From contig OZ251539.1 of NCBI GenBank assembly GCA_965243135.1, positions 5,706,250-5,770,249 on the forward strand: DNA of 64,000 bases, in the 5' to 3' direction. The DNA is from Alphaproteobacteria bacterium. GTDB taxonomy: Bacteria > Pseudomonadota > Alphaproteobacteria > MPNO01 > UBA830. Made by a program: the position numbers and the translations under genes. A model generated the notes under the pieces. It was not told the origin of the DNA. It searched no databases and worked only from the letters and a program-made list of their open reading frames with translations. This document shows, piece after piece, positions 1,865 to 64,000 of the stretch; position 1 is the stretch's first letter, and each line of letters opens with the position of its first letter.

Positions 1865-3412
1865 TCAGGCGGTCTCGAACTCGAAGCCGACGATGTTGCG
1901 CTCTTCCCGTCCGAACTCCATGCCGATCAACCGGATCGGCACGCCGAGATGCCGGTACTTGTCTGCGTAGCCGCGCTCCCGCATCTGCGCCAGCGCTTGG
2001 CCTTCGTGCTGTTGGTCCACGACCTTGAACTCGTACAGATGCACGCATCCCGGACTCAGCACAGCCATGTCCAGTCGCCCGCGGGCGGTCGCTTCCTCGA
2101 CCCGAACGTCCAGACCCGCCGCCGCGAAGTGCGAGTAGACGAGGGCCGCCCAATAGCCCTCGTAATTTGCGAGGTCGTTCTTCCGGTGCCAGTCGTGAGG
2201 AACGCTCGCGAAGAACGCCTCGAACAGCGTCCTCACCTTCTCCGGATCGTCCTCCGCCGTCAGCCTGGCCAGCTCCGCCTGCCGCGTCGCCTCCTGCCCC
2301 TTTACCGGCGACATGGCGCGCAGCAGCCTCTTGTTCAGGCTGAGTTTCACCTCGTAGTTCGGGTAACCCAGCCGATAGAGGCTGCCGCCGCCGACGGCTT
2401 CCTCGCCGACGATGGTCAGGTAGCCGGTCTGGAACAAAAGCGCTTCGGTCGAGATGTCGTCGACGTCGAAAGTCGAGAGCAGTTCGTCGTCCGCGAACAT
2501 GCCCTCCAGGGCCGGCGGCGCGACCTGGCGGCGCGACAGAAGGTCGACGAGGAAGGTCGGCGTGCCGCTCCTGAACCAGTGCGCCTCGAACTGGCGACGC
2601 CGGAACAGCAGCAGGACATCGAACGGGTTGTAGACCCTGTCCGCGCCGCGCCAGTTGTAGCCGTTGTACCAGCGGCGTATTTCGTCCCGGTCCAGGCCCT
2701 CGAGTTCAAGAGCGAAGACTGCGTCCAGCTCCGAGTCCGTGTAGCCGCAAATGTTCGAGAACTCCGGCTCCAGCGTGATGTCGATCAGGTTGTTCAGGCC
2801 CGAGAAAATGCCCGCCTGCGAGAACTTGCTCACGCCCGTCAGGAAAACGAAACGGAGATGCCTGTCGCTGTCCTTGATCATCGCGTAGAAGCCGCGCAGG
2901 AAGTCGCGGTTGGCACGCGCCAGTTCCCGGTCGCCGAGCGCGTCCAGGATCGGCTTGTCGTATTCGTCGACCAGAACGACCACTCGCTGCCCGGCGCGCT
3001 CGTGCAGCGTCCTTATCAGGCGCCGGAAACGGACCGCCGCCCCGGCGGGGCCCGGTTCGAGGCCGGCCAGCCGCTCCGTTTCCTCCAACTGGTCTTCCAC
3101 GTTTCCCCGAACGAGGTCCGGAGAGTCGAAATTGCCCCCGCCGAAGCTGATCCGCACGACGGGATGGCGCGTCGACCAGTTCCACTTGCCGTGTATGGCG
3201 AGGCCCCGGAACAGCTCCTCGCTTCCCTCGAACAGCTCCTGCAGCGTGTCCACCAGCAGGGTCTTGCCGAACCGGCGCGGACGCGACAGGAAATAGAGCT
3301 TGCCCTCCTCGACGAGGCGGTGCACATGGTCCGTCTTGTCGACGTAGTAGCAGTCCAGATCCCGGATCTCCCGGAGGGAGGTCATGCCGATCGGCAGCAT
3401 GCGCTTGGTCAT
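1865..3412 (-). CDS. AAA-ATPase-like / PD-(D/E)XK (PDDEXK_9-type) family protein, paralog 2
   Basis: ORF 1865..3718 trimmed to ATG 3412 (MTKRMLPIGMTSLREIRDLDCYYVDKTDH, SRPRRFGKT P-loop-like, C-terminal LYEFKV..GYADKY). The upstream 102 codons look non-coding and overlap the amt promoter region. Confidence 0.85.
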   Translation of the reverse strand: MTKRMLPIGMTSLREIRDLDCYYVDKTDHVHRLVEEGKLYFLSRPRRFGKTLLVDTLQELFEGSEELFRGLAIHGKWNWSTRHPVVRISFGGGNFDSPDLVRGNVEDQLEETERLAGLEPGPAGAAVRFRRLIRTLHERAGQRVVVLVDEYDKPILDALGDRELARANRDFLRGFYAMIKDSDRHLRFVFLTGVSKFSQAGIFSGLNNLIDITLEPEFSNICGYTDSELDAVFALELEGLDRDEIRRWYNGYNWRGADRVYNPFDVLLLFRRRQFEAHWFRSGTPTFLVDLLSRRQVAPPALEGMFADDELLSTFDVDDISTEALLFQTGYLTIVGEEAVGGGSLYRLGYPNYEVKLSLNKRLLRAMSPVKGQEATRQAELARLTAEDDPEKVRTLFEAFFASVPHDWHRKNDLANYEGYWAALVYSHFAAAGLDVRVEEATARGRLDMAVLSPGCVHLYEFKVVDQQHEGQALAQMRERGYADKYRHLGVPIRLIGMEFGREERNIVGFEFETA

Positions 3413-3418
3413 TCGAAA

Positions 3419-3447
3419 AGAGTAGGCCGCCGCGCCGTCACCGTCAA
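3419..3447 (-). promoter_or_regulatory. sigma70-like promoter abutting the start codon of paralog 2
   Basis: Minus strand reads TTGACG(3447-3442), 17 nt, TACTCT(3424-3419), tttcga, ATG(3412). Confidence 0.5.
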
Positions 3448-3460
3448 TGAGGAGGCGATT

Positions 3461-5957: not shown

Positions 5958-6130
5958 CAGCTTTCCGGGGCGCGGAATTTTTTTACCCCGATTCGGGTAC
6001 GGAAAACCGCGAATTCTTCGCGTCGGGACCGCGATTTTCGCAGATTCCACCCCACGGCCGGCCGGGTGCCGCTCCCCCGATTGGCCAACTGCGTTCAGAC
6101 CACGGCCCGGCTTGCACCAGGTTTGCGGCG
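5958..6130 (+). repeat. dispersed intergenic repeat family 1, copy a
   Basis: cagctttccggggcgcggaattttttt..ggtacggaaaaccgcgaattc..gaccgcgattttcgcag.. aligns by eye with 21681..21775 and with the reverse complement of 62025..62180. Confidence 0.5.
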
Positions 6131-13374: not shown

Positions 13375-13507
13375 CCGGAGGTTTCTCGCGCCGGCGATTC
13401 GCGCCAGCGAGGCCGACGTTCGAAGAAGGCGCGCCGGGGAGGCGCCGTTGGATGGACAGGCCGCTTCGACGCGAGCGAAGCGCCTCATCCAAGAGCGAAT
13501 AGTACCG

Positions 13508-20851: not shown

Positions 20852-21295
20852 TCAGGCGCCCCCCGCCCCGTCGTCCGTCGGCGTCGTCCGTTCGGCGACG
20901 GTTTCCGGCGCGGCGGTCTGGCGGATCAGCGCCTTGAGCGCCGTCATGCTCTCCTCGTGGCGGCGTTCGTCGGCTTCGCGCTGCTGCTGCAGGGCTTGCA
21001 GCATGGCCTCGTGGCGGCGCTCTTCGGCTTCGCGCTGCTGCTGCATGGCTTCGCTCTGCTGCTGCATGGCCGCGCTCTGCTGCTGCATGGCCGCGCGCTG
21101 CTGTTCCATCGCTTCCTCGTGGCGGCGCTCTTCGGCTTCGCGCTGCTGCTGCATGGCTGCGCTCTGCTGTTGCCCGCGTTCGTCGCTGGCGCGGACCATC
21201 GCGCGGATGCCATACCAGATGCCGACGGCCGCGACGACGGCCGCGAGCGCGTTGACGGAAGCGACGGCGAGATTGGCGATCACGACGGCACTCAT
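20852..21295 (-). CDS. small membrane-anchored protein with Q/E/R-rich heptad repeats (hypothetical)
   Basis: ORF 20852..21355 trimmed to MSAVVIANLAVASVNALAAVVAAVGIWYGI (one TM helix). This is followed by AMQQQ(R/S)EAEERRHE-type repeats. An AAGGA RBS is present. Confidence 0.5.
   Translation of the reverse strand: MSAVVIANLAVASVNALAAVVAAVGIWYGIRAMVRASDERGQQQSAAMQQQREAEERRHEEAMEQQRAAMQQQSAAMQQQSEAMQQQREAEERRHEAMLQALQQQREADERRHEESMTALKALIRQTAAPETVAERTTPTDDGAGGA
20952..21157 (-). repeat. internal DNA repeats of the heptad-repeat gene
   Basis: The 44-nt unit cctcgtggcggcgctcttcggcttcgcgctgctgctgcatggct occurs at 21007 and 21114, with a diverged copy at 20952. 21-nt ctgctgctgcatggc units lie between them. 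Confidence 0.7.
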
Positions 21296-21680
21296 GAGCG
21301 TCCTTTCTGGAGACGGTTTCGGAGACAATATCCGCGGCGCCGATGCGATCGTCAAGAGAGAGAAGGGAGAGACGTTTGCGCCAGGGCGAGAACGGGGCGG
21401 CGGCGTTCATTGCCCGTCCTCGGGGCGGCAGCAGGGGCGGCGCGCAGGACGACCCGCAAGCGGCGAAACGCCTGAACTCCAGGCCGCGGTTCCGTCGAAC
21501 GGGAGCGTCGTCCGGTCGAGCGAGGCGGACCCGTCGAACCTCTTGGGTTCGGCCATGGGCGGAAAGCCTGAGGAAACATGCAACCAGCGTGGGCCCGCCT
21601 GGAGGCGGAACAGGCAGGTCGCCCCGCGACCGAACGCTTACAGTCAAGGAGACCCTTGCGCTGTTCATAACGTCCTGAAA

Positions 21681-21775
21681 CAGCTTTCAGGGGCGCGAAT
21701 TTTCTTTTCCTCAGGTACGGAAGACTGCGAACTTTCCGCGCTGAGACCGCCGTTTTCGCAGGTTCCGCTCCAAAC
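21681..21775 (+). repeat. dispersed intergenic repeat family 1, copy b
   Basis: cagctttcaggggcgcgaattttc..ggtacggaagactgcgaactttc..gaccgccgttttcgcagg. Confidence 0.5.
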
Positions 21776-21921
21776 ACCGTTTCGCGACCGCATGTCCGCG
21801 TCACGGCTCGGTTCGTCCGAGTTCGCCGCGCGGCGCCGGAGCGACCGGGCAGTCCATTTTCGTTCCGCGGTTGCCCGCCTGCGCGACCCTTACGGGGTCG
21901 CCGGCCGGGCGGCGAGCCGAC

Positions 21922-24576: not shown

Positions 24577-25155
24577 ACGCCGCTTCGTCGAACTGGCCGC
24601 ACGGTCGCAGCAGGCTCACGAAGCGCGCGTCTGCGGGCGGGGGAAACCGTTAACCCCGGGGCGGAGAGCCGGATGATCCGGTCGCGCGTCGGCAACGGAA
24701 TGCGGTGCAAGACGTTCGTCGCTGTGATGATTTCGTTCGCCGGATTGCGCGGGAAGCCCGAGCGCGTGGACGTGAGGTCGATAGGCCTTATACCAGACCT
24801 GTTATAAATGACCTGTTTTGTGGGGGTTACAGTAGCCCAAGCCCGGTTCACTATAGAAGCGATTTCAGCCGGAGAATCGCATAGCCAACCTTTCCGCGTC
24901 GCGAACCTCCGAGACATCCTTGAACACGCGATTCGCGAAGCGATTTGTTGTGTAACTTACCCCAAGCTGCCGGCCACACGAAACCGTTCCGCGAATCGAA
25001 GATTTTTTCGCGGTGGTGATTGCCGTTCGAGAACTCGGGAGTGTGACGCTGAGGGCTGCCCGTAACGCCCTGTCTTCGCGCCGCGACGCCCGAACGCGGA
25101 ACGGGTATGTCGGCAAGCGGCGCGAAGCCGGGTGAACCATGCCCAAAGTTACATG

Positions 25156-25545
25156 CTACGGGGTGAGTAGGTGCCGATCATGAGCGTTTGTTTCAGGTAC
25201 GACATTCTCCATTGGATCCAGATCTGGACTGTAGGGTGGTAGAAGCAGGAGAGTTATGTTTTCGGGAAGCTCTTTACTTTTATGCCAGCCGGCACCGACG
25301 AGAGCCAGAACGCACTGGCTTCCCAGTTGTACGGAAGCACTGATGAAGGCGAGGTGTTCGTTCATGGATTCCGTGTTGGCGCGGCGTGGCCGACCGTAAG
25401 CTTTCTTTCTGCGCACGCAGCCCCGAAAAGATAGACGTAGCCGTAGTGGTGGCCGCGGCGGTCGTTCGTGCGTGCTCACAGCCACGACAACATCCCCGCC
25501 AATTCTGCCTCGTCCTGGAACCCGTCCGCCCGGCCTTGGACCCTA
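25156..25545 (-). pseudogene. IS630/Tc1-mariner family transposase, 3' fragment
   Basis: ..NTESMNEHLAFISASV..GAGWHKSKELPENITLLLLPPYSPDLDPMENV (DDE C-terminal region). The preceding YGYVYLFGAACAE and DEA..G segments are in other frames. The 5' half is missing where the low-GC DNA begins. Confidence 0.65.
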
Positions 25546-25623
25546 CGGCATCTTTTATCACCCACTACCAACTCCGATGTGCTGATGGGCAGGCATGGGA
25601 TAATTGGGACAGAATGAGTCAGA

Positions 25624-27075
25624 TTAAACCTGTATCGAATCGAGAATACTTGTCACATCTTGTGGTTGAAGTGCCCATCGGTATGCAGGATGAACTTCCC
25701 AATCGTATCCAAAATCTATAACTTCACTTGCCAAAAATCTATTTTGATCAAAATATCTTCTATCGATTCCGGATGATGTATCCTTTCTTGCAGTGATAAA
25801 GTCTATCTTATAAAGAAATTGTATCAGAGACTTTGGTGTGACGGGTCTTCCATTTTTATAGTGAAGAGCCGAATGATCTATGATCTCTTTCATTTTTAGA
25901 ACAAGCCTATCCGTAGCATATAGAAAACTACTGGAAGTTCTCCTTTCTCTCTTTGTTTGCCGCATACCTAACAACAACTTCTCAATCTGTGGAAGCTCAC
26001 TCGAAAACTCATTTATTGTATCTTGAAGCCTTTCCAGTGAATACGGCTCAAATACTGCCTCCAAATTCCCTGTGCTGATTATCTGACTATCATGCATATA
26101 CGCGTTTCGAGCCGCACTGTGCATAAGTTTGATCAAATCTCTTGGCCTCCGTCTCGTCAGAGAGAGTAAGACGTTATGTATAGGGCGGTTACTCCAGTGG
26201 CCTCTTCCTCCGAAATTCGGATCCATAATTTTCGATAGTATATTCTTGGATATATCGGTCTGATTCATTCTCAATATAGCTTCTTGATCACATTCTCCGT
26301 CGAAGAAAGTTAAAACTCTTTTTGCAATTACAGAAAGTATTTCGTGATTGGTCCAAGAGAGCCAGATCACATGACGTTCTATTTTATCAGTCGACTCGTC
26401 AGAAGTCCGGACAAGATAATAAACATCTGTTCTCAGGCCAATACGAAATTTGATCCGACTGTCCGATCCAGAGAGGTCGCGAATGGCGTTTAGTAATGCA
26501 GAAATATTTCTTATACTACTTTCTGACGCATCCCATCCTCGGTCTATATCGTCTATATAAACGTTTATAGAACGATCTTGTAGAAATCTTTCAACAACTC
26601 TTCTTTTCAAATCATCCATGATAGATGGGCGTATATTTTCCAATGCTATTTTGATAGATTCAATCACATACCCCATGCTTTTCTTTGCAATTTGAGCATT
26701 CTGATTACTATCACCGCTATTAGTTATTCGAGAAATCGCTTTATGTATTATCGCTGAAACTAAACCAAGTTTCCAATTTTCAATGAGTTGATTGAATTCC
26801 GACTTGTCTGCATTCCCAACATGAGCAATGAGGTCATTGGGTCTAATCCAAACCGATAGCCTTAAATTTTCTTCATCGTCGATATATGCGCGACGTAATA
26901 AGGCACTCTTGCCTATTCCCTTGTGACCGACTAATATCCGTATCGGAATATCAACGATGAGATTTTCATAAGTCCGGTTGGAGAAAAAATATTCTTTAAA
27001 TCTCTCCAAGTTTTCGTTCTCAGCGTCTTCAGCTCCAAACAGACGTTCGTTTGTCGCGTCATCGAATTTAAACAT
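25624..27075 (-). CDS. stand-alone P-loop NTPase (STAND/Sll1717-like by eye), 483 aa
   Basis: Walker A VGHKGIGKSALL and Walker B INVYIDDIDRGWD. AAGGAGAG RBS. The segment is about 33% GC, against about 65% in the flanks. Confidence 0.8.
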   Translation of the reverse strand: MFKFDDATNERLFGAEDAENENLERFKEYFFSNRTYENLIVDIPIRILVGHKGIGKSALLRRAYIDDEENLRLSVWIRPNDLIAHVGNADKSEFNQLIENWKLGLVSAIIHKAISRITNSGDSNQNAQIAKKSMGYVIESIKIALENIRPSIMDDLKRRVVERFLQDRSINVYIDDIDRGWDASESSIRNISALLNAIRDLSGSDSRIKFRIGLRTDVYYLVRTSDESTDKIERHVIWLSWTNHEILSVIAKRVLTFFDGECDQEAILRMNQTDISKNILSKIMDPNFGGRGHWSNRPIHNVLLSLTRRRPRDLIKLMHSAARNAYMHDSQIISTGNLEAVFEPYSLERLQDTINEFSSELPQIEKLLLGMRQTKRERRTSSSFLYATDRLVLKMKEIIDHSALHYKNGRPVTPKSLIQFLYKIDFITARKDTSSGIDRRYFDQNRFLASEVIDFGYDWEVHPAYRWALQPQDVTSILDSIQV

Positions 27076-28009
27076 ATCTAACTCTCCTTTACAAACCTAT
27101 TCCGGCAAGCATGTCTCATAGCCATATGGACCCCCTTCTTGTCTACCCGGTTTCGTCGAGGGCTTCAACAATCAGGGTTGCCCCCTCCCGGACTACGATC
27201 TCAGCTTCCTCACTGCGCCGTTACCCTGTTCAGCGTAGCGAAGCGCGCAGCTTGTCGGAAACCGCTGCAAAGATCGGGCCACGCTCCCTGACCTTGAGTA
27301 GCACCCCGCGCACAGCTTCATGAGGGCAAGCATACATCGATACGAAAGTCGACACACACTCTTTCTTCACCGCTCCACCTCTCCCACGTTCGGTGACCTT
27401 GCCACAAACTCGGAGGCCGATCATGGCTTGCCTATGCAATCTTTTCAGACATCAGCCAACTCGAAGCGCTGTTGGGGGTGTGGAAAAGCACGGCTTCGGC
27501 CGCGTCGGTAGGCGGCCGCATACGGCCCGTTCCGTGACAGTTCGCGCACCCGAACCGATGCGGGTTCTGGTTCAGCACCGGCGACGCTCGTTTCCCTTCC
27601 TCCCGGTAATAAAGCAGGTAGCCTCGGCGTCACCTGTCGATGTCGCTGCCTTCCAAGTAGAAGCTTCAAGATAGCGCTCCGCGCTTCGAGTCTTCCCGCA
27701 CGATCGCCACGGTGCCGACGCCCTCTGCCCGAAGCGGCGGCGAGATACCGCCATGGCCGCACTTTCAACCCGAAACCGCGCATGACCTCGAAGCGGCAGG
27801 GCTGGAGCGCCGACCTCTGCCGCGCCTTGTGGATTCTGGACGGGGCCGCCATCCTGACAGCGCTTCGGTTCCTGCCGACTATGCGCCCGGAGCACGGCTT
27901 TTCCCAAGGGAAACGGGGCGTTGCGGCGGGAGCGTCGGTTCGTGCGGGCCGCACCAGAGACATGGTGGACTTCCCCCGTTGTTCAAACCATCGGGCAGGT
28001 AACGGAACG

Positions 28010-30740: not shown

Positions 30741-30875
30741 AGCCGTGCGGAGCGCTCCTGCGTCTGCGCCCGCCCCCGTAGCGGCGAAGCTGCTGACGCG
30801 CCCTCGCGGTCCTTGCGGATCTGTTGGCGGACAGCCGGAGCGATCCGCGGGGCGCCGGCCGGGCGCCGAGCCGAC

Positions 30876-30901
30876 AAAAAACGGCGCAGCGCAAACGCCT
30901 C
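30876..30901 (+). repeat. conserved motif, copy 4 of 5
   Basis: aaaaaacggcgcagcgcaaacgcctc, 265 nt upstream of the ATPase ATG at 31166. Confidence 0.55.
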
Positions 30902-37271: not shown

Positions 37272-37863
37272 TGTTTCCTCCCGATATCGCAGGCGCGGAT
37301 TCCGGCCGACGCGGCCGCTTCGGAGAATGGCCGCGGCGCTTTGCTTCCGGTTTCCGCAACGCGTTCGAAACGATGATACCGCCTGCGGCCGGACGATTTC
37401 AAGCGTCGGCGGGCCCGAGCGCCGCGTCGGGGAGCGATCGACGACTTTCGCTCGCGTCCCGCAGCGCGGAATTGGAGGCCGCGTCTTCGGCGCGGCCGGG
37501 CGGAACTTCGACCGGCGGCATCCTCCCTCCGGCCCAGGCGCCAGTTCGCCTTCAGGTCGCTCCGAAGGGTCGCGAGACGCTTGTCGGTCATCGCGCGGGC
37601 TATTTCCGCGGCGATCCGGCGGCCGCGCCGGACAGCGCAGCGTTCGCGTTTCGCATGATCGGCGGATACGCTTCGTCCGGCGGGATGCTCAGGCCCGTGG
37701 AGTTGAACAACCGCTATGGATGACCGGCGGTCCGAACGACGAGGAGTGAAGAGATGTCGCTCGGCGCAACCGGATATTCCGTTCTTGATTCTGCAGTCGC
37801 CCGCCTGCACGATCCTTGCGAGCCTGCCGACGGGCGGGCGGAGCGCCGAGCGGACGGCAGCCG

Positions 37864-37889
37864 AAAAAATGGCGCAACGCGAACGCCTC
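37864..37889 (+). repeat. conserved motif, copy 5 of 5
   Basis: aaaaaatggcgcaacgcgaacgcctc, 183 nt upstream of the methyltransferase ATG at 38072. Confidence 0.55.
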
Positions 37890-39457: not shown

Positions 39458-39888
39458 CAAGGCGAATCGATTGCTATTGATTTGAGCCTTCCAGGCTGAA
39501 AAATGCCGGATTTGAGGTCCGAGTGGCGTGACGATAGAAGTTCCTGCTGGAGTTCTGCAAGCGCCGCGCACCGCATCGGGGGTCGAAAGTCTGGAGCCGC
39601 AAGGGTTTAGAGCCGTCGCCGCGCTTGAGCGCGACGACCGGACCACGAGCGCATTCCACATCTCCTTCCGAGCGCGACAGGCAACAAAGCGGAGGGTGCC
39701 GGGCAAGCGGCCGGCAACGAACTTGCGCGATCCGCAGAACGGACAGTCGGGGTCGTGTTCGAAAAGATGGTGCAACCGCTATATTTTACGGCTCGCTGGC
39801 GCGTGATGGTTTGTCCTTTAGTATTACGTCGTGCATTCTCCAATCTGAACCTGGATTTGGATCCGGGACAAAGGGCTCGAATTCATCC

Positions 39889-41856
39889 ATGGGCGCGATT
39901 CTTCCGATAAACCTCGACAACCTCCTCCACTGTCGCAGTGTGGAGTCGGAACGGGTGGAGTTCGAAGGATCGTGGGATCCGCGGACGACAGGGCCCCAAG
40001 TGCTCAGGACGATCTGCGCGTTCGCCAATGACTATCACAACCTGAACGGCGGCTACGTCGTCATCGGCGTCGAGGAGCAGGCCGGACGTGCGGTCTTGCC
40101 TCCTTCCGGTCTGTCCGCCGGGGAGATCGAGACCGCGCGGAAATGGGTCCGCGGCAACTGCAACCGGCTCGACCCTCCCTATCACCCCATTTTGTCGCCC
40201 GAGACCGTCGGAGATCGACTTATCCTGGTAGTGTGGGCCCCGGCGAGCGAGATGAGGCCCCATCGTGCGCGCGGGATCGGCGGCGAGCGATTCTGGGTGC
40301 GTCTCGGCTCCGAGACCGTCGACGCCGAACGGCGCGGCGGTCTGCTTCGCGGCGTCGTCGAGCAGACCGCGCGCGTGCCTTGGGACGATCGCCGGGCGCC
40401 CGATGCTCAAGTCGAAGATCTGCGCGGAGCAAAGGTCCGCGAATACCTGCGAGATGTACGCAGCGGGCTCCTCGACGAACCGAGCGAAGAGAACGTTTAT
40501 CGGCGCATGCGCATAACGATGAAAGTTAATGATCGCGAAGTCCCCCGGAATGCGGGCCTCCTGTTCTTTTCGAAAGATCCCGCGGAGTGGTTTCGAGGGG
40601 CGAAGATCGAAGTCGTGCAGTGCGCCGCGGATCGGGCCGGGGATGTGCAGGAGGAACGGATCTTCGGTGGCGCGCTCGTGGATCAGCTTCGCGACTGCTT
40701 GAATTATCTTGAAAACTTTTCGGCGTTTCATCTGCAAAAGCAGCGGCATCGGAGCCAGGTTCGCGGTTGGGTCAGCTATCCGCTTCCGGCCCTCCGCGAA
40801 ACCCTCGTCAACGCGGTCTATCACCGCGGCTACGATGTCGACCAGCCCGAACCTACCAAAGTCTATCTCTATCCGGACCGCATTGAGGTCATCAGCTACC
40901 CGGGACCGGTTGCGGGAATCGAAGCCCGACACCTGCTTCCCGACGCGGAAGTTCGGGCCGCGCCTGCCCGCAATCGCCGCATCGGAGAATTTCTGAAGGA
41001 GCTGGGGCTTGCGGAGGGACGACTCACCGGACTGCGGAAGGTGTTTCAGGCGATGGAAACCAATGGCTCTCCGTCGCCCCGATTCGATTTCGACGAGCAG
41101 CGGACTTACTTCCAGGCCACGTTGCCGGCCCATCCGGAATATGGGGCGCTGTCGGCGCTGCGGGACGCGGCCCATCTAAAGGCATTGGGAGATCAAAGAG
41201 AAGCTCTCCGTCGCGTTGAGTCCGCGTGGACGTCCAACCGAAGTTCGGCGATCCTCGCGTCCGAGATGGTGCGGGCGTATGCGGAAAGCGGCGAGTTGGA
41301 GCGTGCCGAGGAAGTCCTGAAAACCTTCGAGGCGCAAGGGCCGGAGAGCGCGGTTTCCTGCGTCGCGAATGCGATGATCGAGGCGCTCGCGGACGCGGGC
41401 GACGAAAGCGGAGCTCGGCGGTTGCTCAGGAAGAGCCGTCCCGTATTGTTCGGCCGGGACGCTATAGACGCTGCTATCCTGGCCCGGCGCGTCAAAGACT
41501 CCCGCGCCGCGCACCGGTATTTCGAGCGCGCCGACGATGCCGTATATGCCGATTCTCGGGCGCTGCTTGAGTTCGCGCAGACCAAGCTCTGGCTGGCGAA
41601 CGAGGCCTACCGGCAACGTCGGCGCGATTCGAATCGACGGTTTCTCATGGAGGCTCGAGTGCTGCTGGAGCGCGCTATCCAGCTCGATGCATCGCCTGCG
41701 CGCCATGCCTGGGCGTGGCGCGAACTGGCGCGTGCGCTCAACTGGCTACGGGCTCCGGTCGGAGAGGTCGAAGGAGCCTATCGCGCGGCGATCGAGCTAT
41801 TGCCGGACGAACGGAGATTTCGCAGAGAGATGGAGAGGGTGCTGGTTGCCAGATAG
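39889..41856 (+). CDS. Schlafen/AlbA_2 + HATPase_c_4 + wHTH protein (COG2865-like) with a helical-repeat C-terminal extension
   Basis: 655 aa from MGAILPINLD. AlbA_2 pattern ESERVEFEGSW..ICAFANDYHNLNGGYVVIGVEE. HATPase_c_4 pattern YPLPALRETLVNAVYHRGYD..YPDRIEVISYPGP. A tail of about 180 aa looks TPR-like. Confidence 0.8.
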   Translation: MGAILPINLDNLLHCRSVESERVEFEGSWDPRTTGPQVLRTICAFANDYHNLNGGYVVIGVEEQAGRAVLPPSGLSAGEIETARKWVRGNCNRLDPPYHPILSPETVGDRLILVVWAPASEMRPHRARGIGGERFWVRLGSETVDAERRGGLLRGVVEQTARVPWDDRRAPDAQVEDLRGAKVREYLRDVRSGLLDEPSEENVYRRMRITMKVNDREVPRNAGLLFFSKDPAEWFRGAKIEVVQCAADRAGDVQEERIFGGALVDQLRDCLNYLENFSAFHLQKQRHRSQVRGWVSYPLPALRETLVNAVYHRGYDVDQPEPTKVYLYPDRIEVISYPGPVAGIEARHLLPDAEVRAAPARNRRIGEFLKELGLAEGRLTGLRKVFQAMETNGSPSPRFDFDEQRTYFQATLPAHPEYGALSALRDAAHLKALGDQREALRRVESAWTSNRSSAILASEMVRAYAESGELERAEEVLKTFEAQGPESAVSCVANAMIEALADAGDESGARRLLRKSRPVLFGRDAIDAAILARRVKDSRAAHRYFERADDAVYADSRALLEFAQTKLWLANEAYRQRRRDSNRRFLMEARVLLERAIQLDASPARHAWAWRELARALNWLRAPVGEVEGAYRAAIELLPDERRFRREMERVLVAR

Positions 41857-46753: not shown

Positions 46754-47095
46754 TATTCCTCCCGTTTTGTCGCGGATCAGCGAGAGAGCGCCGGCCGGGC
46801 CTGTACGCTGTTCCGCAAGCCTGCTTGTCCAAGCCGTTAGACAGTCTGCCATAATTCGGCGGGACGGCATAGCCGGACAGCGCCGCCCCTTTCGCCGCCG
46901 CGCGCGCGGCCGTCAGATGACGCCGACCCTTGATGCGCCTCGCAGAACTTTCGCCGCCGCGTGCGGGGCCGTCGGCCAGCGCGATGGCTTTCCGCGGTCG
47001 GCCAGTCCTGCCCGCTGTCCGGCATCTTCTCGACGGCTGGCGTTCCGTAGCCGACCGCCCACGTTGTCAGGGGTCCAGGTCCGTGCGGAGTGACG
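46754..47095 (+). repeat. ~340-bp repeat, intact copy
   Basis: ttcctcccgtttt..cggatcagcgagagagcgccggccgggcctgt..ccaagccgttagacagtctgccataattcggcgg..ttgtcaggggtcc..ggaggggaaacaggtcattc matches 49214..49314 joined to 52155..52405. Confidence 0.7.
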
Positions 47096-47261
47096 GAGGG
47101 GAAACAGGTCATTCCCGAACCGGCCGGCGGCCTCGGCCATGAGGCCCATGCCGACGCCGGCGGCGCTGCCCGTGCGCCTCCTTCTCCTGCCGGTCGAGCT
47201 GGCGGATGGCGTCGCCGAGCTGGGCGCGGACGCGCAGGACGAGGCGTTAATGACGCTCTCC

Positions 47262-47290
47262 TTGACGGCTTCGGGGCGGCGGCCTACCCT
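47262..47290 (+). promoter_or_regulatory. sigma70-like promoter abutting the start codon of paralog 3
   Basis: TTGACG(47262-67), 17 nt, TACCCT(47285-90), tttcgg, ATG(47297). Confidence 0.5.
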
Positions 47291-47296
47291 TTTCGG

Positions 47297-48838
47297 ATGA
47301 CGAGACGCATGCTTCCGACCGGCATGACCTCCCTCCGGGAGATCCGGGGAGAGATGGATTGTTACTACGTCGACAAGACGGACCATGTGCGCCGCCTCGT
47401 CGAGAGGGGCAAGTACTATTTCCTGTCGCGTCCGCGCCGGTTCGGCAAGACCCTCCTGGTGGACACGCTGCAGGAGCTGTTCGAGGGAAGCGAGGAGCTG
47501 TTCCGGGGCCTCGCCGTGCACGACGGGTGGGACTGGTCGGCGCGCCATCCGGTCGTGCGGCTGGATTTCAGCAGAGGGGGCGATTTCCGCGCCCAGGACG
47601 GGGTTCGCGTAGCCGTGGAAAGGCAGCTGGCGAGGGCGGAAAGGCGCGCCGGCCTCGAACCGTGCCTCGTCGAAGCGTCGGTTCGTTTCTGGGAATTGAT
47701 CGAGGCCCTGCACGAGCGCACCGGGCAGCGCGTGGTCGTGCTGGTGGACGAATACGACAAGCCGATTCTGGACGCGCTCGACGACCGGGAACTGGCGCGG
47801 GCCAACCGCGACTTCCTGCGCAGCCTGTACGGGGTGATCAAGGCCTGCGACAGGCAACTGCGTTTCGTTTTTCTGACGGGAGTTAGCAAGTTCTCGCAGG
47901 CGGGCCTGTTCTCGGGCCTGAACAACCTGCGCGACATCACCCTCGATCCGCGGTTCGGCACCATCTGCGGCTACACGGACGCGGAACTGGATGCGGTCTT
48001 CGCTCCGGAACTCGAGGGCCTGGACCGGAACGAGGTCCGCCGCTGGTACAACGGCTACAACTGGCGCGGGCCGGAAAGGGTCTACAGCCCGTTCGACATC
48101 CTCCTTCTCTTCGAAACGCGCGAGTTCGGCAACCACTGGTTCCTGAGCGGCACGCCGACCTTCCTGGTCGAGACGCTGGCGCGCCGCAACCTGCCCACTC
48201 CCCGCCTGGACGGCATGATCAGCAGCGAAAACCTGCTCTCGACCTTCGACGTCGACAGGATCTCGGTCGAGGCGCTTCTGTTTCAGACCGGCTACCTCAC
48301 CATCGCGGGCGAGGAGAACGGGCGCTACCGGCTGGACTACCCGAACCTTGAGGTGCGCCAAAGCCTGGGCGAAGCCCTGCTGGGAGAACTGCTCCCGGCC
48401 GAGGCCCGCGAGGAGACGGAGAACCTGCGGCTGGGCGAACTGCTGGAGGCGAACGACTTCAAGCGCATCGAGACCCTGTTCCGCGGCGTCTTCGCCGCCA
48501 TCCCGCACCAGTGGTACGCGACCAGCCCGGTTGCGAAGTACGAGGCCCACTACGCGAGCGTCATCCACAGCTGCTTCCTGATGGAGGGCCTCGAGCCGGT
48601 CGCGGAGGACAGCGGCAGCCGGGGGCGCGCCGACATGGCGATCCGCGTCGGCGGACGCGTCTACCTGTTCGAGTTCAAGGTGGTGGAGCGCGGGCGGGAG
48701 GGGACCGCGCTCGCGCAGTTGCGGGAGAAGGGCTATGCGGACAAGTACCGCCATCTCGGTCGTTCGGTGCACCTGATCGGGGTGGAGTTCAGCCGCGAGG
48801 AGCGCAACGTCGTCGGCTTCGATTGCGAGGCTGCCTGA
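47297..48838 (+). CDS. AAA-ATPase-like / PD-(D/E)XK (PDDEXK_9-type) family protein, paralog 3
   Basis: ORF 47090..48838 trimmed to MTRRMLPTGMTSLREIRGEMDCYYVDKTDH. It is colinear with paralogs 1 and 2. Confidence 0.85.
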   Translation: MTRRMLPTGMTSLREIRGEMDCYYVDKTDHVRRLVERGKYYFLSRPRRFGKTLLVDTLQELFEGSEELFRGLAVHDGWDWSARHPVVRLDFSRGGDFRAQDGVRVAVERQLARAERRAGLEPCLVEASVRFWELIEALHERTGQRVVVLVDEYDKPILDALDDRELARANRDFLRSLYGVIKACDRQLRFVFLTGVSKFSQAGLFSGLNNLRDITLDPRFGTICGYTDAELDAVFAPELEGLDRNEVRRWYNGYNWRGPERVYSPFDILLLFETREFGNHWFLSGTPTFLVETLARRNLPTPRLDGMISSENLLSTFDVDRISVEALLFQTGYLTIAGEENGRYRLDYPNLEVRQSLGEALLGELLPAEAREETENLRLGELLEANDFKRIETLFRGVFAAIPHQWYATSPVAKYEAHYASVIHSCFLMEGLEPVAEDSGSRGRADMAIRVGGRVYLFEFKVVERGREGTALAQLREKGYADKYRHLGRSVHLIGVEFSREERNVVGFDCEAA

Positions 48839-54931: not shown

Positions 54932-56089
54932 TCAAACTTTCTCCCAGCCTGAAAGAACGGCCAGATCAAGTTCCATTTGATCGAAAAAACCCTCTGGCCA
55001 GTCGCTGATTGCTCCGGTTTTGTCGATGGTGACGGTCATGACCTTCCCGGTATCGCTTTCCGGACCGAAGAAGTGCAACGCGACAGCGCTCTGATCGAGC
55101 AAACTATCGCGCACTGCAAGACGGATGCCATTAAGCAAGTGATCGCTATGGGTTTCGACGAAGATCTGTATGCCCGCGCCAGCCATTTGACCAAGCAGCC
55201 GGCCAACGGCGGACTGCGCCCGAGGGTGCAGATGAGCTTCCGCGCTATCCACGACCATGATCGATCCTGGTGCCGTGGTCAGCAATGCGACTAGCATGGG
55301 AAAGGCGTAGCTCAATCCATAACCAACGTTCGCCGGTCGAACCCAATTGCTCGTTCTGCTTGAACTGAAAGTCAGCAACGCTGGAGAGTCGGGAGTTAGC
55401 CGATCGGCTTTTACGCGAGATCCTGGAAATATTTCGCCGAGCCACGCATCGATCTGCGCACGTACCGTTTCCCGATCATCTTCCGGGTGGCGCCGTGCGA
55501 TGTCGACTGTCTCGTCAGCATACTCAAGATACCAATAAGCGGCATACTCACCGTTCGCGCCGACATCCCCTAGCGGGCGCCATGGTTCGCATGGCACGGG
55601 AAATATCTCAATCTGCGCCTTACGCTCTGCACTGAGGAATATTGCATCCCGCATAGCGGAAACCAGTTGCGAGTGCCCATCCACAGGCTGGATTTTGCAA
55701 ACTGATTCCTCGGGAACGCCGTCTCGCGAATATTCTACGGTTGCGAGATGCATCAACCCCCTGGCCGACAACTCTGATTTGTGATCGAAGGTCCATGTGA
55801 TTTTTTCTTCAGTGTTTCCGACGCTTCCGATGCCGAGCTGAAGAGATTTTTCCGAGGCGTTTCTTCTAATTATTGCGTCCGCGCTGCCTAAGTTAACTAG
55901 GTCTCCATTCAGGTGCAGCCTCCTGCCGTCAGGAGCGACGCGGAGGGCTTGCGTCATCAACAATAGCGCCTGCAGAGCCGTGGATTTGCCGGCTGCATTA
56001 TATCCCGTCAGTACCGTCAGCGGTGCGCAGGGCAGTTCAAGAGCACCGAAGCACTTGAAGTCCTTCATCACTATTGATTTAATCGTCAT
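54932..56089 (-). CDS. AAA ATPase with DUF3696-type C-terminus
   Basis: 385 aa from MTIKSIVMKDFKCFG. Walker A GYNAAGKST, Walker B IMVVDSAEAHLHP, H-loop VETHSDHLL, C-terminal DWPEGFFDQ. The ATG is 2 nt after the DUF262 stop. Confidence 0.85.
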   Translation of the reverse strand: MTIKSIVMKDFKCFGALELPCAPLTVLTGYNAAGKSTALQALLLMTQALRVAPDGRRLHLNGDLVNLGSADAIIRRNASEKSLQLGIGSVGNTEEKITWTFDHKSELSARGLMHLATVEYSRDGVPEESVCKIQPVDGHSQLVSAMRDAIFLSAERKAQIEIFPVPCEPWRPLGDVGANGEYAAYWYLEYADETVDIARRHPEDDRETVRAQIDAWLGEIFPGSRVKADRLTPDSPALLTFSSSRTSNWVRPANVGYGLSYAFPMLVALLTTAPGSIMVVDSAEAHLHPRAQSAVGRLLGQMAGAGIQIFVETHSDHLLNGIRLAVRDSLLDQSAVALHFFGPESDTGKVMTVTIDKTGAISDWPEGFFDQMELDLAVLSGWEKV

Positions 56090-56091
56090 GG

Positions 56092-57207
56092 TCAAATATC
56101 CTGACAACTATCTTCGGTCATATAATTTCCGAGACAATCTTCCACCATACTAAATCTGGTTCTGACTTGTTTGGTGCTGTTCGTAGAATAGGTGATGGCA
56201 TCTTCAAAATCGCAATGCATCATCAAATCTCTGATTAGCGTTTTTATCTGTTTTTTATTCATATCGAAAACCTCGGTCGAAATTTGCGCGCAAGCCCAAG
56301 ATAACACGTCAAAAAGCGCCATATTTATTACCGTCTTGTTATCGCTAAATTTGGCTAAGGATTTTCGAAACGCATGATCGCGAAATAATTTATAATTTTG
56401 GCGCATGGAAGCAATAAAAGTTTCCTCTATTCGAGTGCTTCCCGCTTTGGAATTTAGGTGTATCAAAGATCGCGCCAAGAATTCGTCCATGTCGCCATTA
56501 TCATATGACTTCCATCCAAAAATATAAAATCCGGCAAATCGGTTGATGGCTTCACGGTCGCGCATTTTCTTGGGGTCGAGGGATCCGCCTGTTGCCTTCA
56601 AGAAGTAATCGTTTTTTGACATGTCGGAAACCCAGCGCGTTCCGGGCCCATTGAAAATCGCGTTGCGCATTTGCTGTCGGGTTAAAGGAACGCCGTCGTT
56701 GACGCGTTCAAATATGTCCAGTCGGGCGCGTTGGGGCGCGTCTTTATCGAGGATATAGAGCATAAGCTGTGTATCTTCCACTCTATCTTGGAGTTGTATT
56801 TCAAGATCGGAGAAGCGCTTTTCTTCCAAGGGATGATTGCGGCCGAGCCCGGTCAGTTTCAGCTTTCCATCCAGGAAACGAACGAATGTCGTCAAGCGCT
56901 GAAGCCCGTCGACGATTACGATTCGTCCATCGGGGGCTTCGGCGACGTACAGAGCTGGAAGCGGTATACGCATGATGCAACTTTCGACCAGCTTGGATTG
57001 CTTCTGCGGCTTCCAGACAAAATCGCGTTGAAAATCGGGATCTAGGAAGAAACGGCCACGCCGTATTCTTCTGACAACTTCGGAGACTGTGCGAGTCTCG
57101 GAGCGAACCATAATGTCGTGGAGAGGATACGCGCCCCTCTCGGTGACGGAAGGATCTTCGTATCCCTCGATCTCCTCGGGTGGAGTTTGCTTCAAAGAAA
57201 CTGTCAT
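56092..57207 (-). CDS. DUF262 (GmrSD N-terminal / ParB-like NTPase fold) protein
   Basis: 371 aa. FLDPDFQRDFVW..IVDGLQRLTT matches the DUF262 DGQQR-type motif. The region is low GC. Confidence 0.85.
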   Translation of the reverse strand: MTVSLKQTPPEEIEGYEDPSVTERGAYPLHDIMVRSETRTVSEVVRRIRRGRFFLDPDFQRDFVWKPQKQSKLVESCIMRIPLPALYVAEAPDGRIVIVDGLQRLTTFVRFLDGKLKLTGLGRNHPLEEKRFSDLEIQLQDRVEDTQLMLYILDKDAPQRARLDIFERVNDGVPLTRQQMRNAIFNGPGTRWVSDMSKNDYFLKATGGSLDPKKMRDREAINRFAGFYIFGWKSYDNGDMDEFLARSLIHLNSKAGSTRIEETFIASMRQNYKLFRDHAFRKSLAKFSDNKTVINMALFDVLSWACAQISTEVFDMNKKQIKTLIRDLMMHCDFEDAITYSTNSTKQVRTRFSMVEDCLGNYMTEDSCQDI

Positions 57208-61781: not shown

Positions 61782-62024
61782 GGGCATCTCTCCTTTCGAG
61801 CCGTCGGCAAGTGTCTCTTCAAAGCGTTCGCGCCGCAAGGGAGCGCTAGCGTTTCAGTCTCCCGTTGACATTCGCGCAGTCGGAAGCATTTGCGCTGTGG
61901 CATTTTTTGTCGGTTGCTGTCCGCTCGATGCCCCCATGGTCGCTCCGGCTGTCTGTCGGCACGCTCGCAAGGGTTGCGCAAACGGACGATTATGGAATAG
62001 AAATCGGAATATATGGCTGCCTCG

Positions 62025-62180
62025 GCACCGTGCGTAAACTCGGGGCGAGCCGGGCCGTGGTCCGAACGCGGCCGGCCGGCCGCGGTCGTGGAGCGGCTTG
62101 GGGCAGAATTTGCGAAAATGGCGGTCTCCGCGTGGAAAATTCGCAGTTTTCCGTCCCAGAATAAAGGAAATCCCCCGAAA
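62025..62180 (-). repeat. dispersed intergenic repeat family 1, copy c
   Basis: The reverse complement aligns with 5958..6130, including ..gcgttcggaccacggcccggct... Confidence 0.5.
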
Positions 62181-62353
62181 TATGACTGTATTTCAAGACG
62201 TTGGAAACCACGCAAGAGTCTCGTAATGGCATCAATTGATCTTGGGGATGGTCTTGTATATCCTGATGGCGTGCGAGCGATATGGTGCTCCAAGCTGCCG
62301 TGGCTTTCGGCTCGAACCTACCACGCCACGACAATTTGCGAGGTGAGGCTATC

Positions 62354-63388
62354 GTGAAGAGTACATACAGTTCCATCCCCACACACCAGATTGACTTTGA
62401 CCGAGAGAATCCGAGGATTAAGGTCGCCCTTGAGAAGTATGGTGACAAGCTCGATGACCAACGCATCCGCTTTGCACTACGGACCGCCACGGAAGGATCC
62501 GCCAGCGTTTCCTCCTATCGCTCTCTAAAGGACTCGATCAGAGCGGCTCGAGGTATTTCGGTACCTATCGTCGTTTGGCCCACCAATGGTCGATTCGTGT
62601 GCGTTGACGGCAACACCCGCCTAACCATCTACTACGAGCTCCACGAGGAGAGCGCCCCTGGCGATTGGACCACCATCAATTGTATCGTACTCGACAACCC
62701 GGACCAGCGGGACATCGAGACGATCCGGGTGACAGCCCACCTCGTCGGCGCCCGTGACTGGCCTGCCTACGAGAAGGCACGATACCTTCATTACCTGCGT
62801 AACGTCGAGTTCATGGACTACGACGACCTCATCGCCCGATGCGGAGGCAACAAGCGGACGATCAGCCAGCAAATCGAAGCCTACCACGACATGAACGAAT
62901 ATTACCGCGACGTAAACAGCGACGACGCGTTCAAGGTTGATCGATTTAGCGGCTTTGTCGAACTACAGAAGGCAGAAATCAAGGACTCCATCTACGGAGC
63001 GGGTTTCGACCTCCACGACTTCGGCCGCTGGATCCGTGACGGCCAAATATACCGACTGGCCGACGTTCGAAAGCTCCCCCGCGTTCTTGCAGACGACGAG
63101 GCGAAGGACACGTTCGTCAACGGCGGCATCCGATCAATCGAAGACGCCATCGCGGTTGCCGATGCCAACCGTCAAAAAGGCGTCCACACCCCGTCGGGCG
63201 ACATCACCGTCGCCGATGCCAGCATGACGATGTTGGCCGAAGCGCTGCTACAGAGGATCAAAGCCTTGGCGCGAAAGGACTATCTTGCCCTCCGTGACCG
63301 GCAATACGAGACTGCGGACCAAGACGTTGACACCCTGAGCGACCTTGCCGAGCATCTTCAAGACTTGCTTCAAGATGTCTCAAAGTAA
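62354..63388 (+). CDS. ParB-like nuclease (ParB/Srx fold) domain protein
   Basis: 344 aa from GTG 62354 (RBS gaggtgagg). IPTHQIDFDRENPRI and VCVDGNTRL match the ParB N-terminal domain. Confidence 0.75.
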   Translation: MKSTYSSIPTHQIDFDRENPRIKVALEKYGDKLDDQRIRFALRTATEGSASVSSYRSLKDSIRAARGISVPIVVWPTNGRFVCVDGNTRLTIYYELHEESAPGDWTTINCIVLDNPDQRDIETIRVTAHLVGARDWPAYEKARYLHYLRNVEFMDYDDLIARCGGNKRTISQQIEAYHDMNEYYRDVNSDDAFKVDRFSGFVELQKAEIKDSIYGAGFDLHDFGRWIRDGQIYRLADVRKLPRVLADDEAKDTFVNGGIRSIEDAIAVADANRQKGVHTPSGDITVADASMTMLAEALLQRIKALARKDYLALRDRQYETADQDVDTLSDLAEHLQDLLQDVSK

Positions 63389-63836
63389 CGCGCACCGCCG
63401 ACTGGTTGCTGCCGCCGCGCAAGCCATACGGCTACGCCATCCGACGATGTGCGTTACGACGGACCTCCTCGACGACCCCGGTGATCCGGTGCCCCCGTGC
63501 ATCGGCGGCCACCGTCCCGATATCATTGCCCGGTGCACCGCTGCCCGCCGCCGGTCGGTCATTATCGCGGAAGCCAAGACTGATGGCGACGTTGACAATC
63601 AACATACTCGAAGCCAGATCCGTGCCTTCGTGGATCACCTTGACGCCATAACGACGGACACCAATACCGGTACCTTCATCTTGGCCGTCAATGGACATGT
63701 TGCGGCTTCAGCAGGGACCGTACTCCGCTTCAACTGTCGCCAACGGGTGTCGTTCCGACTCCACATCAAGTTGTTCGACGGCCTCGATTTCTGGGCCTTG
63801 GGTCCCTTTGGAGCATCCCTATGGCGTTTGTCCTGA
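63375..63836 (+). CDS. small PD-(D/E)XK-like protein (tentative)
   Basis: 153 aa. It overlaps the upstream gene by 14 nt. GHRPDIIAR..(x)..VIIAEAKT resembles a D..E.K nuclease core. Confidence 0.5.
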   Translation: MSQSNAHRRLVAAAAQAIRLRHPTMCVTTDLLDDPGDPVPPCIGGHRPDIIARCTAARRRSVIIAEAKTDGDVDNQHTRSQIRAFVDHLDAITTDTNTGTFILAVNGHVAASAGTVLRFNCRQRVSFRLHIKLFDGLDFWALGPFGASLWRLS

Positions 63837-64000
63837 GACGCCAACCCGAACTCTCGCCCAAGCATGCGGCGTATCCCTATCAGCTCGACGCAATTCGCTC
63901 CGTCAAGGATCTCCCTTACGCCGCCATCTTCCATGAGCAAGGTCTCGGAAAGACCAAGATCGCGATTGATCTAGCTTTGCTATGGCTGCAGAGCGATGCG
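63821..64000 (+). CDS. SNF2/DEAD-like helicase, N-terminal 60 codons only (runs off the window)
   Basis: Not in the ORF track because it is open at the edge. ATG 63821 overlaps the previous gene by 16 nt. MAFVLRRQPELSPKHAAYPYQLDAIRSV..IFHEQGLGKTKIAIDLAL contains helicase motif I. Confidence 0.7.
   Translation, partial: MAFVLRRQPELSPKHAAYPYQLDAIRSVKDLPYAAIFHEQGLGKTKIAIDLALLWLQSDA

Follow-up and report, generated by a model that had tools for sequence, protein, structure and literature searches.

DGQHR/ParB proteins accompany DNA-modifying enzymes in the Dnd and Dpd systems and are also found fused to nucleases (PMC3632139, PMC10853773). Two ParB-fold paralogues act together in GrwAB, and in the GmrSD-family systems GrwAB and TgvAB the NTPase domain is a sensor or regulator of cutting (PMC12137116). 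GHKL ATPases occur with a PD-(D/E)XK nuclease in VcSduA (PMC12137116), and as paraMORCs with SNF2 proteins and nucleases in operons resembling those of restriction-modification (R-M) systems (PMC2292703). Here we describe a locus at the right edge of a 64,000-nucleotide (nt) stretch of DNA, called the window below, from an alphaproteobacterium (contig OZ251539.1, positions 5,706,250 to 5,770,249). Its three overlapping genes, for a ParB-like protein, a small nuclease and an SNF2 ATPase, are almost certainly the front half of a mobile six-gene cassette that we denote A-B-C-D-E-F. They are an accessory module of a larger system whose core is a pair of radical SAM and GHKL genes.

The three open reading frames (ORFs) all lie on the forward strand. 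ORF1 (gene A, 62354-63388) has a GTG start and encodes 344 amino acids (aa), ORF2 (gene B, 63375-63836) has an ATG start and encodes 153 aa, and ORF3 (gene C) starts with an ATG at 63821 and is cut by the window edge at 64000 after its first 60 codons. A Shine-Dalgarno-like sequence, GAGGTGAGG, is found at 62340-62348, 5 nt before the ORF1 start. A first-pass annotation of this DNA had read the three genes as one operon with overlaps of 14 and 16 nt, and both overlaps are exact (63375-63388 between ORF1 and ORF2, 63821-63836 between ORF2 and ORF3). Each is kept in 31 of the 33 related loci with a full cassette, where the proteins have diverged to ~50% identity, and hence the overlaps are not due to chance; their conservation across relatives also bears out the single operon. 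Another in-frame start for ORF1, the ATG at 62282 (368 aa), was rejected since the homologues begin at the position equivalent to 62354. Rfam, promoter and terminator scans near the operon returned nothing useful.

The left edge of the cassette and its leader were placed at 62278..62353 on the forward strand, based on nucleotide homology to other cassettes. This homology, to L006, L009 and other loci, sets in at 62278-62343 with no shared sequence further upstream, and therefore the dispersed intergenic repeat of the host at 61883-62222 (strand not assigned) is outside the element and is given as context only. The repeat, which the first-pass annotation had put just before the operon, is real but weak, with copies of 67-75% identity found by blastn in the window at 5991-6127, 21649-21791, 30830-30901 and 37766-37889; find_repeats also lists it, as pair I7. 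Its unit is ~140 nt long, belongs to a host-genome family and resembles repetitive extragenic palindromic sequences or miniature inverted-repeat transposable elements (REP/MITE-like); the cassette has one copy directly at its left end. The intermediate GC content noted for the operon was also found: it is 57.9% for 62354-64000 vs 63.4% in the remaining window, and the cassette has a lower GC content than both of its flanks in 30 of the 33 related full-cassette loci.

The cassette is widely distributed among sponge-associated and other bacteria. We scanned one genome per species, which gave 40 loci, and the genes past position 64000 were read from such relatives and not from the source contig. 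ORF1 is 92% identical to its counterpart in a Binatia chromosome and 82% to that in a gammaproteobacterium, and in both cases B, C, D, E and F follow. The same order A-B-C-D-E-F, which bears out the gene-order conservation that the first-pass annotation had proposed to check, is observed in ~33 of the 40 loci as a block of ~7.1 kb, covering at least eight phyla or classes; the hosts include Binatia, Acidobacteriota, Alpha- and Gammaproteobacteria, Poribacteria, Chloroflexi, Nitrospirales and Thermodesulfobacteriota. Several of the host names denote sponge-specific lineages (Poribacteria, Poriferihabitaceae, Spongiihabitans). Across these phyla the copies of protein A share 73-92% identity, and this implies a recent horizontal spread. 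The first-pass annotation had suggested that further genes, such as a methylase or an effector, may lie beyond the window edge. Every relative does carry more genes there, and these are a second ParB-like gene, a radical SAM gene and a GHKL ATPase gene instead of a methylase. The flanks of the cassette differ between genomes: it sits among housekeeping genes, as at L001 where it lies directly between trpF and folC, or beside insertion sequence (IS) transposases, toxin-antitoxin genes or an Eco29kI R-M system.

Gene A looks like a ParB/Noc-type protein similar to the CTP-dependent clamps, judging from its predicted structure. It has a ParB/Srx N-terminal domain, a middle domain like a helix-turn-helix (HTH) and a helical C-terminus. 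The AlphaFold2 (AF2) model has a predicted local distance difference test (pLDDT) score of 79, and the top 27 matches of this model in a Foldseek search of the PDB all belong to the ParB superfamily, i.e. ParB, Noc, Spo0J, the Pnob8-like ParB N-domain, PadC and sulfiredoxin, so the model and the search agree on the ParB/Srx fold of the N-terminus. The best match has an E-value of 4e-6 and a probability of 1.00, with 230-250 aligned columns spanning the N-domain and the HTH, and the nearest structures are CDP- or CTPgammaS-bound ParB and Noc. Two motifs, N19-P20-R21 and G86-N87-T88-R89 (GxxR, the phosphate-binding motif), are invariant in 35 and 50 homologues. Hidden Markov model (HMM) searches gave weak matches to TIGR03764 (1e-4) and ParB_N, PADLOC gave only a weak PDC-M38A match for A and D, and no match was found for ORF1 and ORF2 in Pfam or between A and any ParB in the PDB at the sequence level. 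Overall, the sequence profiles of A, B, D and E have no usable match in the PDB except for a weak one of E to RimO. Gene D, of 335 aa in the relatives, is a full-length paralogue of A (hhalign 99.3%, E-value 2.5e-20) and retains the NPR and GNSR motifs.

Gene B is predicted to be a small PD-(D/E)XK nuclease by its modelled fold and its intact catalytic triad. The AF2 model based on a 40-sequence alignment has a pLDDT of 93.7, and its top Foldseek matches in the PDB are the nuclease domains of EndoMS/NucS, BstEII, XisH, PaqCI, RecU and Can2 (E-value ~5e-3, probability 0.96-0.99 for these first six). The catalytic residues D49, E66 and K68 (RPDI...IAEAKT) are all invariant in a 35-sequence alignment; the 40-sequence one retains D49 and K68 throughout and E66 in at least 90%. 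One homologue has a precomputed Pfam match to FokI_C. Neither B nor E has any match in PADLOC.

The part of gene C inside the window encodes 60 residues, which include helicase motif I (GLGKT), the sole SNF2 motif before the edge, and 56 of these 60 residues (93%) are identical to the orthologue at L001. The orthologues are ~500 aa long with SNF2-rel_dom (2e-28) and Helicase_C (6e-17) matches, and 34 of them share motifs I, II, V and VI without change; by both lobes and these motifs, the orthologues place C in the SNF2 family. Its best PADLOC matches are the ZorD, DpdE and DrmD models (1e-37 to 1e-18). The domain calls of the first-pass annotation, i.e. a ParB/Srx fold, a PD-(D/E)XK nuclease and an SNF2 protein, hold up in the models and motifs, with the correction that ORF1 appears to be of ParB/Noc type with an HTH and not a bare nuclease domain.

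The last two genes of the cassette encode a putative radical SAM enzyme and a putative GHKL ATPase. Protein E has ~545 aa in the relatives, and its C174, C178 and C181 (CxxxCxxC) are invariant. Of 32 members, 31 match the Pfam Radical_SAM family weakly, with scores under the gathering threshold (best 1e-4), and five give weak B12-binding matches (best 0.004); E also aligns weakly to RimO around the cluster motif, and RefSeq gives its orthologues on plasmids the product name 'radical SAM protein'. These data suggest that E is a divergent radical SAM enzyme, perhaps with an N-terminal domain resembling the B12-binding one. Protein F, of ~500 aa in the relatives, matches HATPase_c_3 at 1.5e-8, above the cutoff, and its Bergerat motifs, the N-box (E..QN..D), D.G.G and G.RG.GR, are invariant in 30 orthologues, so it is predicted to be a GHKL/MORC-like ATPase. 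The temperate Marinitoga camini virus 1, whose host is a thermophile, encodes a shortened homologue of E (L131 4998-6080; 31% identity over 68% of the query) next to HerA and a NurA-like exonuclease.

Some copies of the cassette are broken by insertions or truncated (L005, L009, L015, L016 and L030). At L015 gene D is split at 13395/16326, at L016 A and B are ~7 kb apart, and L047 has many frameshifts. An apparent fusion of A and B (P0382, L047) was set aside since its linker resembles an out-of-frame translation and E and F are split too; this copy is probably frameshifted or decayed. At L005 (14555-16779, Vicinamibacterales) A-B-C-D is followed by a different ParB-like gene on the opposite strand and a radical SAM gene whose product is 29% identical to E, and this is a second, distant ParB-radical SAM pairing in place of E-F.

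E-F is the constant core of a widespread and unnamed cluster family, and A-B-C-D is one of its exchangeable partner modules. At least 579 metagenome contigs encode E, and HMM maps were made for 80 of them. E is followed by F in 73 of the 74 radical-SAM-anchored metagenome loci and in all 36 genome loci, i.e. 109 out of 110 in total. The A-B-C-D block lies upstream or downstream of E-F, convergent or divergent to it, and D-D-A-C variants occur. Five loci (L014, L054, L056, L072 and L079) have the circularly permuted order E-F-A-B-C-D on one strand, which supports two separable blocks and not one fixed operon. Although the nearest relatives of the cassette are from sponge symbionts, we rejected the idea of a sponge-specific element, as the core pair E-F is also frequent in other kinds of metagenome and on plasmids of rhizobia.

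Other genes are also combined with this core. In many members of the family E is immediately preceded by a gene denoted N (~340 aa), whose stop codon overlaps the start codon of E. N encodes a DGQHR protein (TIGR03187 at 1e-40, above the cutoff) which matches DpdB (NCBIfam NF041060 at 7e-12, PADLOC PDLC02811 at 4e-12) and more weakly DndB. Partner H is a fusion of DGQHR and HEPN_Swt1, and partner X-P-Y consists of a HerA/FtsK ATPase (PADLOC DndH at 1e-50), a second GHKL ATPase and a PP_RS20740-like protein. A pair of PIN_8 (~640 aa) and second GHKL (~520 aa) genes adjoins the system on either side and in either orientation at six independent loci (L002 17156-20609, L012 5804-9038, L023 17531-20960, L045 17707-20830, L129 5087-8640 and L130 13215-16731); PADLOC has no name for this pair; it may be one more module, or an unnamed system in its own right. 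Each of the 17 loci with 7 kb or more of sequence on either side of E has one or more partner modules. Complete versions are found on plasmids of cultured bacteria, where the RefSeq annotation is generic. Plasmid pR132505 of Rhizobium leguminosarum WSM1325 has A-B-C-D-N-E-F, as RLEG_RS34150-34120, with PIN-GHKL on the opposite strand, pNL1 of Novosphingobium aromaticivorans DSM 12444 has PIN-GHKL-N-E-F and then DGQHR-HEPN (cluster SARO_RS17510-17535), and in Roseomonas mucosa AD3 A-B-C-D runs convergent to N-E-F.

We consider it likely that the whole is a defence or conflict system. The parts list, i.e. a nuclease whose active site is intact, an SNF2 translocase, GHKL/paraMORC ATPases and several ParB-superfamily proteins, with HEPN, PIN and HerA as alternatives, points to a conflict system directed at DNA. 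The first-pass annotation had called a conflict system targeting nucleic acids plausible; such a role fits all of the context evidence and stays at the level of interpretation. No intact A-B-C-D was observed without an adjacent radical SAM gene of the E family among the mapped loci, and E-F was found without A-B-C-D; this dependence in one direction fits the logic of R-M systems. We tentatively propose a more specific model of modification and restriction by analogy with Dnd and Dpd, because a DGQHR protein locked to a modifying enzyme and detachable restriction modules are seen in those two systems as well. In this model (N)-E-F would mark the cell's own DNA, using radical SAM chemistry, a ParB-superfamily NTPase and a GHKL clamp, and A-B-C-D would be the restriction arm against DNA lacking the mark. 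A and D could load on the DNA, perhaps as a heterodimeric clamp gated by nucleoside triphosphates (NTPs), C would translocate as the SNF2 motor, and B, translationally coupled to both of its neighbours, would cut the unmarked DNA. A bolder version, in which E, together with a GHKL clamp and NTPases of the ParB/DGQHR family, makes a previously unknown DNA mark that labels 'self' for exchangeable restriction modules, and a heterodimeric ParB-type clamp of A and D guides the SNF2 motor and the minimal nuclease, seems doubtful to us at present.

Several points weigh against these proposals. Genes D, E and F lie beyond the window, and their presence at this locus is read across from relatives. The Foldseek E-value of B (5e-3) is modest, and its assignment leans on the motif as well. 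The dependence of A-B-C-D on E-F comes from small numbers (all seven plasmids with an A homologue also carry E, and five of the 12 plasmids with E lack A) and from loci chosen by homology. The subfamily in the window has no DGQHR gene N, so the analogy with Dnd and Dpd, by which DNA is the putative substrate of E, is drawn partly from relatives. Lastly, the E proteins of sponge symbionts and of rhizobial plasmids share 55-57% identity, an unusual degree of conservation for defence genes.

An alternative hypothesis, which we regard as unlikely, is that the same cassette follows another logic: E might make a small molecule, either a nucleotide modified as by viperins or a signal, with the ParB folds binding or supplying NTPs, and the nuclease/SNF2, HEPN, PIN and HerA proteins would be effectors acting upon infection through abortive infection or chain termination. 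To our knowledge viperins are the only established radical SAM enzymes acting against phages, and they work on CTP and other NTPs, which counts for this hypothesis. ParB folds do bind nucleotides, the structures nearest to A being ParB with CDP or CTPgammaS bound, and RNase-type partners (HEPN_Swt1, PIN_8) do not fit a pure restriction of DNA. However, E has no detectable similarity to viperins and matches nothing but the generic region that binds the cluster and models of the B12-binding/MiaB kind; elsewhere the DGQHR proteins go with DNA modification, as in Dnd and Dpd; and the one-way dependence on E-F resembles R-M.

It is also possible, though rather improbable in our view, that the cassette is a weapon or shield of mobile elements and not a part of host immunity, e.g. 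a module for competition between plasmids or integrative and conjugative elements, for addiction or for anti-restriction. It might protect the element from host restriction by modifying its DNA, or act against rival plasmids as the ParB/Srx protein Osa does. ParB/Srx enzymes mediate conflict between conjugative plasmids (Maindola 2014, as cited in PMC10853773). The Rhizobium and Novosphingobium carriers of full versions are conjugative plasmids, and the neighbours there are typical accessory genes, i.e. DUF736, DUF3768, DUF1173, an SOS-response peptidase and toxin-antitoxin genes. The cassettes of the sponge symbionts, on the other hand, are chromosomal, between housekeeping genes and with no transfer genes nearby. 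This hypothesis overlaps with the defence interpretation, from which sequence data can hardly tell it apart.

That the system is a diverged copy of a named one, i.e. type I/III R-M, DISARM, BREX, Zorya, Dnd, Dpd or GmrSD, is very improbable. C does score best against the models of ZorD, DpdE and DrmD, N is similar to DpdB and DndB, and X to DndH, but such matches are limited to generic ATPase or ParB-superfamily domains, and the mapped loci have no PglZ, DUF1998, ZorABC, DndACDE, DpdA/TGT (tRNA-guanine transglycosylase) or HNH/DUF1524 gene and no methyltransferase, the enzyme expected of type I/III R-M, within the cassette. For DISARM we found generic SNF2 similarity to DrmD (7e-18) alone, with no equivalents of DrmA, DrmB and DrmC; for BREX, weak helicase similarity to BrxHI/HII alone, with no matches to PglZ, BrxC and PglX; and for Zorya, a match of C to the helicase part of ZorD alone, with no ZorA, ZorB and ZorC. 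The modification enzymes of both Dnd and Dpd are absent, and what is in common is the DGQHR helper N and the DndH-like HerA, both in relatives. PADLOC v2, NCBIfam, RefSeq product names and full-text literature searches gave no name or description for this gene set, B and E being without a PADLOC match and the plasmid copies being named generically; a newer catalogue could list the system. None of the systems by which the first-pass annotation would have been overturned (type I/III R-M, DISARM, BREX) was found in the downstream genes of the relatives.

A prophage or plasmid module for replication (through the helicase) or partition (through ParB) is hardly credible, and this includes the prophage replication module that the first-pass annotation had also considered: ORF1 is structurally closest to partition ParB and Noc, but the chromosomal loci have no ParA, replication initiator or phage genes beside the cassette, which is inserted within housekeeping neighbourhoods or flanked by IS, toxin-antitoxin or R-M genes, the operon partners of A are a nuclease and an SNF2 ATPase, a search of 2.9 million viral contigs in IMG/VR with ORF1 patterns gave no relative, and the nuclease, radical SAM and GHKL genes, always included, are needless for partition.

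If the proposed defence system with its two arms is real, it would be an unnamed, widely spread and multi-gene immune system with a radical SAM enzyme at its core, and it would carry the principle of Dnd and Dpd, in which a ParB-superfamily helper goes with an unusual DNA modification and detachable restriction modules, over to new chemistry; in the bolder version this would be the third such chemistry. As far as we know, radical SAM chemistry has been linked to phage defence through viperins alone, and we know of no case where it makes a 'self' mark on DNA. The system would also give ParB-type clamps a role in immunity, their first in the bolder version, and would explain a gene set spread over at least eight phyla or classes of sponge symbionts. 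Cultured strains carry complete copies on their plasmids, which makes the system open to direct tests.

The window contains other defence-like genes as well. A second defence-like gene pair at 54932-57207 on the reverse strand lies 5 kb upstream of the cassette in a stretch of 46-56% GC, and consists of a GmrSD_N/DUF262 protein (56092-57207, reverse strand, 7e-25) and an AAA_21/AAA_15/DUF3696 ATPase (54932-56107, reverse strand, 8e-23). A gene with AAA-ATPase_like (PF09820, 9e-58) and PDDEXK_9 (PF08011) domains at 47090-48838 on the forward strand has further copies near 81-1364 and 2171-3451; the three copies have diverged to 80-92% identity and one is inverted relative to the other two, and a tandem duplication of ~2.09 kb at the window start includes the copies there. 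The low-GC island at 25000-27100 (39-50% vs ~65%), which is probably foreign DNA, has a 483-aa ORF at 25624-27075 on the reverse strand with a weak ORC-CDC6-like match. The 743-aa protein encoded at 39625-41856 on the forward strand has Schlafen AlbA_2, HATPase_c_4 and TPR domains and adjoins a low-GC stretch at 38-40 kb. Short imperfect tandem repeats of 21-66 nt, GC-rich and of the CTGCTGCTGCA type, are found at 20953-21173 in a stretch of 73% GC and are probably a repetitive coding segment.

Compared with the known systems, the cassette shares single features with several of them. Chromosomal ParB and Noc are the best structural match of A over the N-domain and the HTH, with NPR and GxxR kept, while here there are two divergent paralogues in an operon with a nuclease and a helicase, with no ParA partner and no known parS. 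In the mobile, R-M-like neighbourhoods of the MORC and paraMORC genes a GHKL ATPase is likewise encoded together with nucleases and an SNF2 helicase, but Iyer, Abhiman and Aravind 2008 (PMC2292703) describe no radical SAM or ParB/DGQHR partners, and the GHKL gene here is locked to the radical SAM gene and not to the helicase. GrwAB and TgvAB, of the GmrSD-family type IV (PMC12137116), also have two ParB-superfamily paralogues and a nuclease in one system. The differences are that A and D resemble canonical ParB/Noc with an HTH and not DUF262, that the nuclease appears to be PD-(D/E)XK and not His-Me/DUF1524, and that SNF2, radical SAM and GHKL proteins are added. In ZorD and in the motors of type I/III systems an SNF2/SF2 translocase is coupled to a nuclease of the restriction-endonuclease fold, and ZorD is the best PADLOC match of C (1e-37). 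The nuclease here is a separate protein of 150 aa whose gene has a 16-nt overlap, instead of a fused Mrr-like domain, and there is no ZorABC membrane complex, methyltransferase or specificity subunit.

The Dpd cluster is much larger, and its tRNA-guanine-transglycosylase-like DpdA, its preQ0 pathway and its other proteins have no counterpart here. It is similar in that its DNA-modifying enzyme has a DGQHR partner, N resembling DpdB and E being the candidate enzyme here, and in that an SNF2-like helicase, to which C can be compared through its match to DpdE (1e-27), belongs to the restriction part. From Dnd our system differs in having no DndA, DndC (PP-loop), DndD and DndE, in its obligatory GHKL ATPase, in its candidate modifier, which would be a true radical SAM enzyme (CxxxCxxC), and in the restriction arm in the window, which is ParB-nuclease-SNF2-ParB and not DndFGH. 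With Dnd it shares a DGQHR/ParB-superfamily protein beside an Fe-S-dependent enzyme (here E, as the candidate modifier), a detachable restriction module, one of the partners here having a DndH-like HerA/FtsK ATPase (1e-50), and a patchy, mobile distribution in genomic islands.

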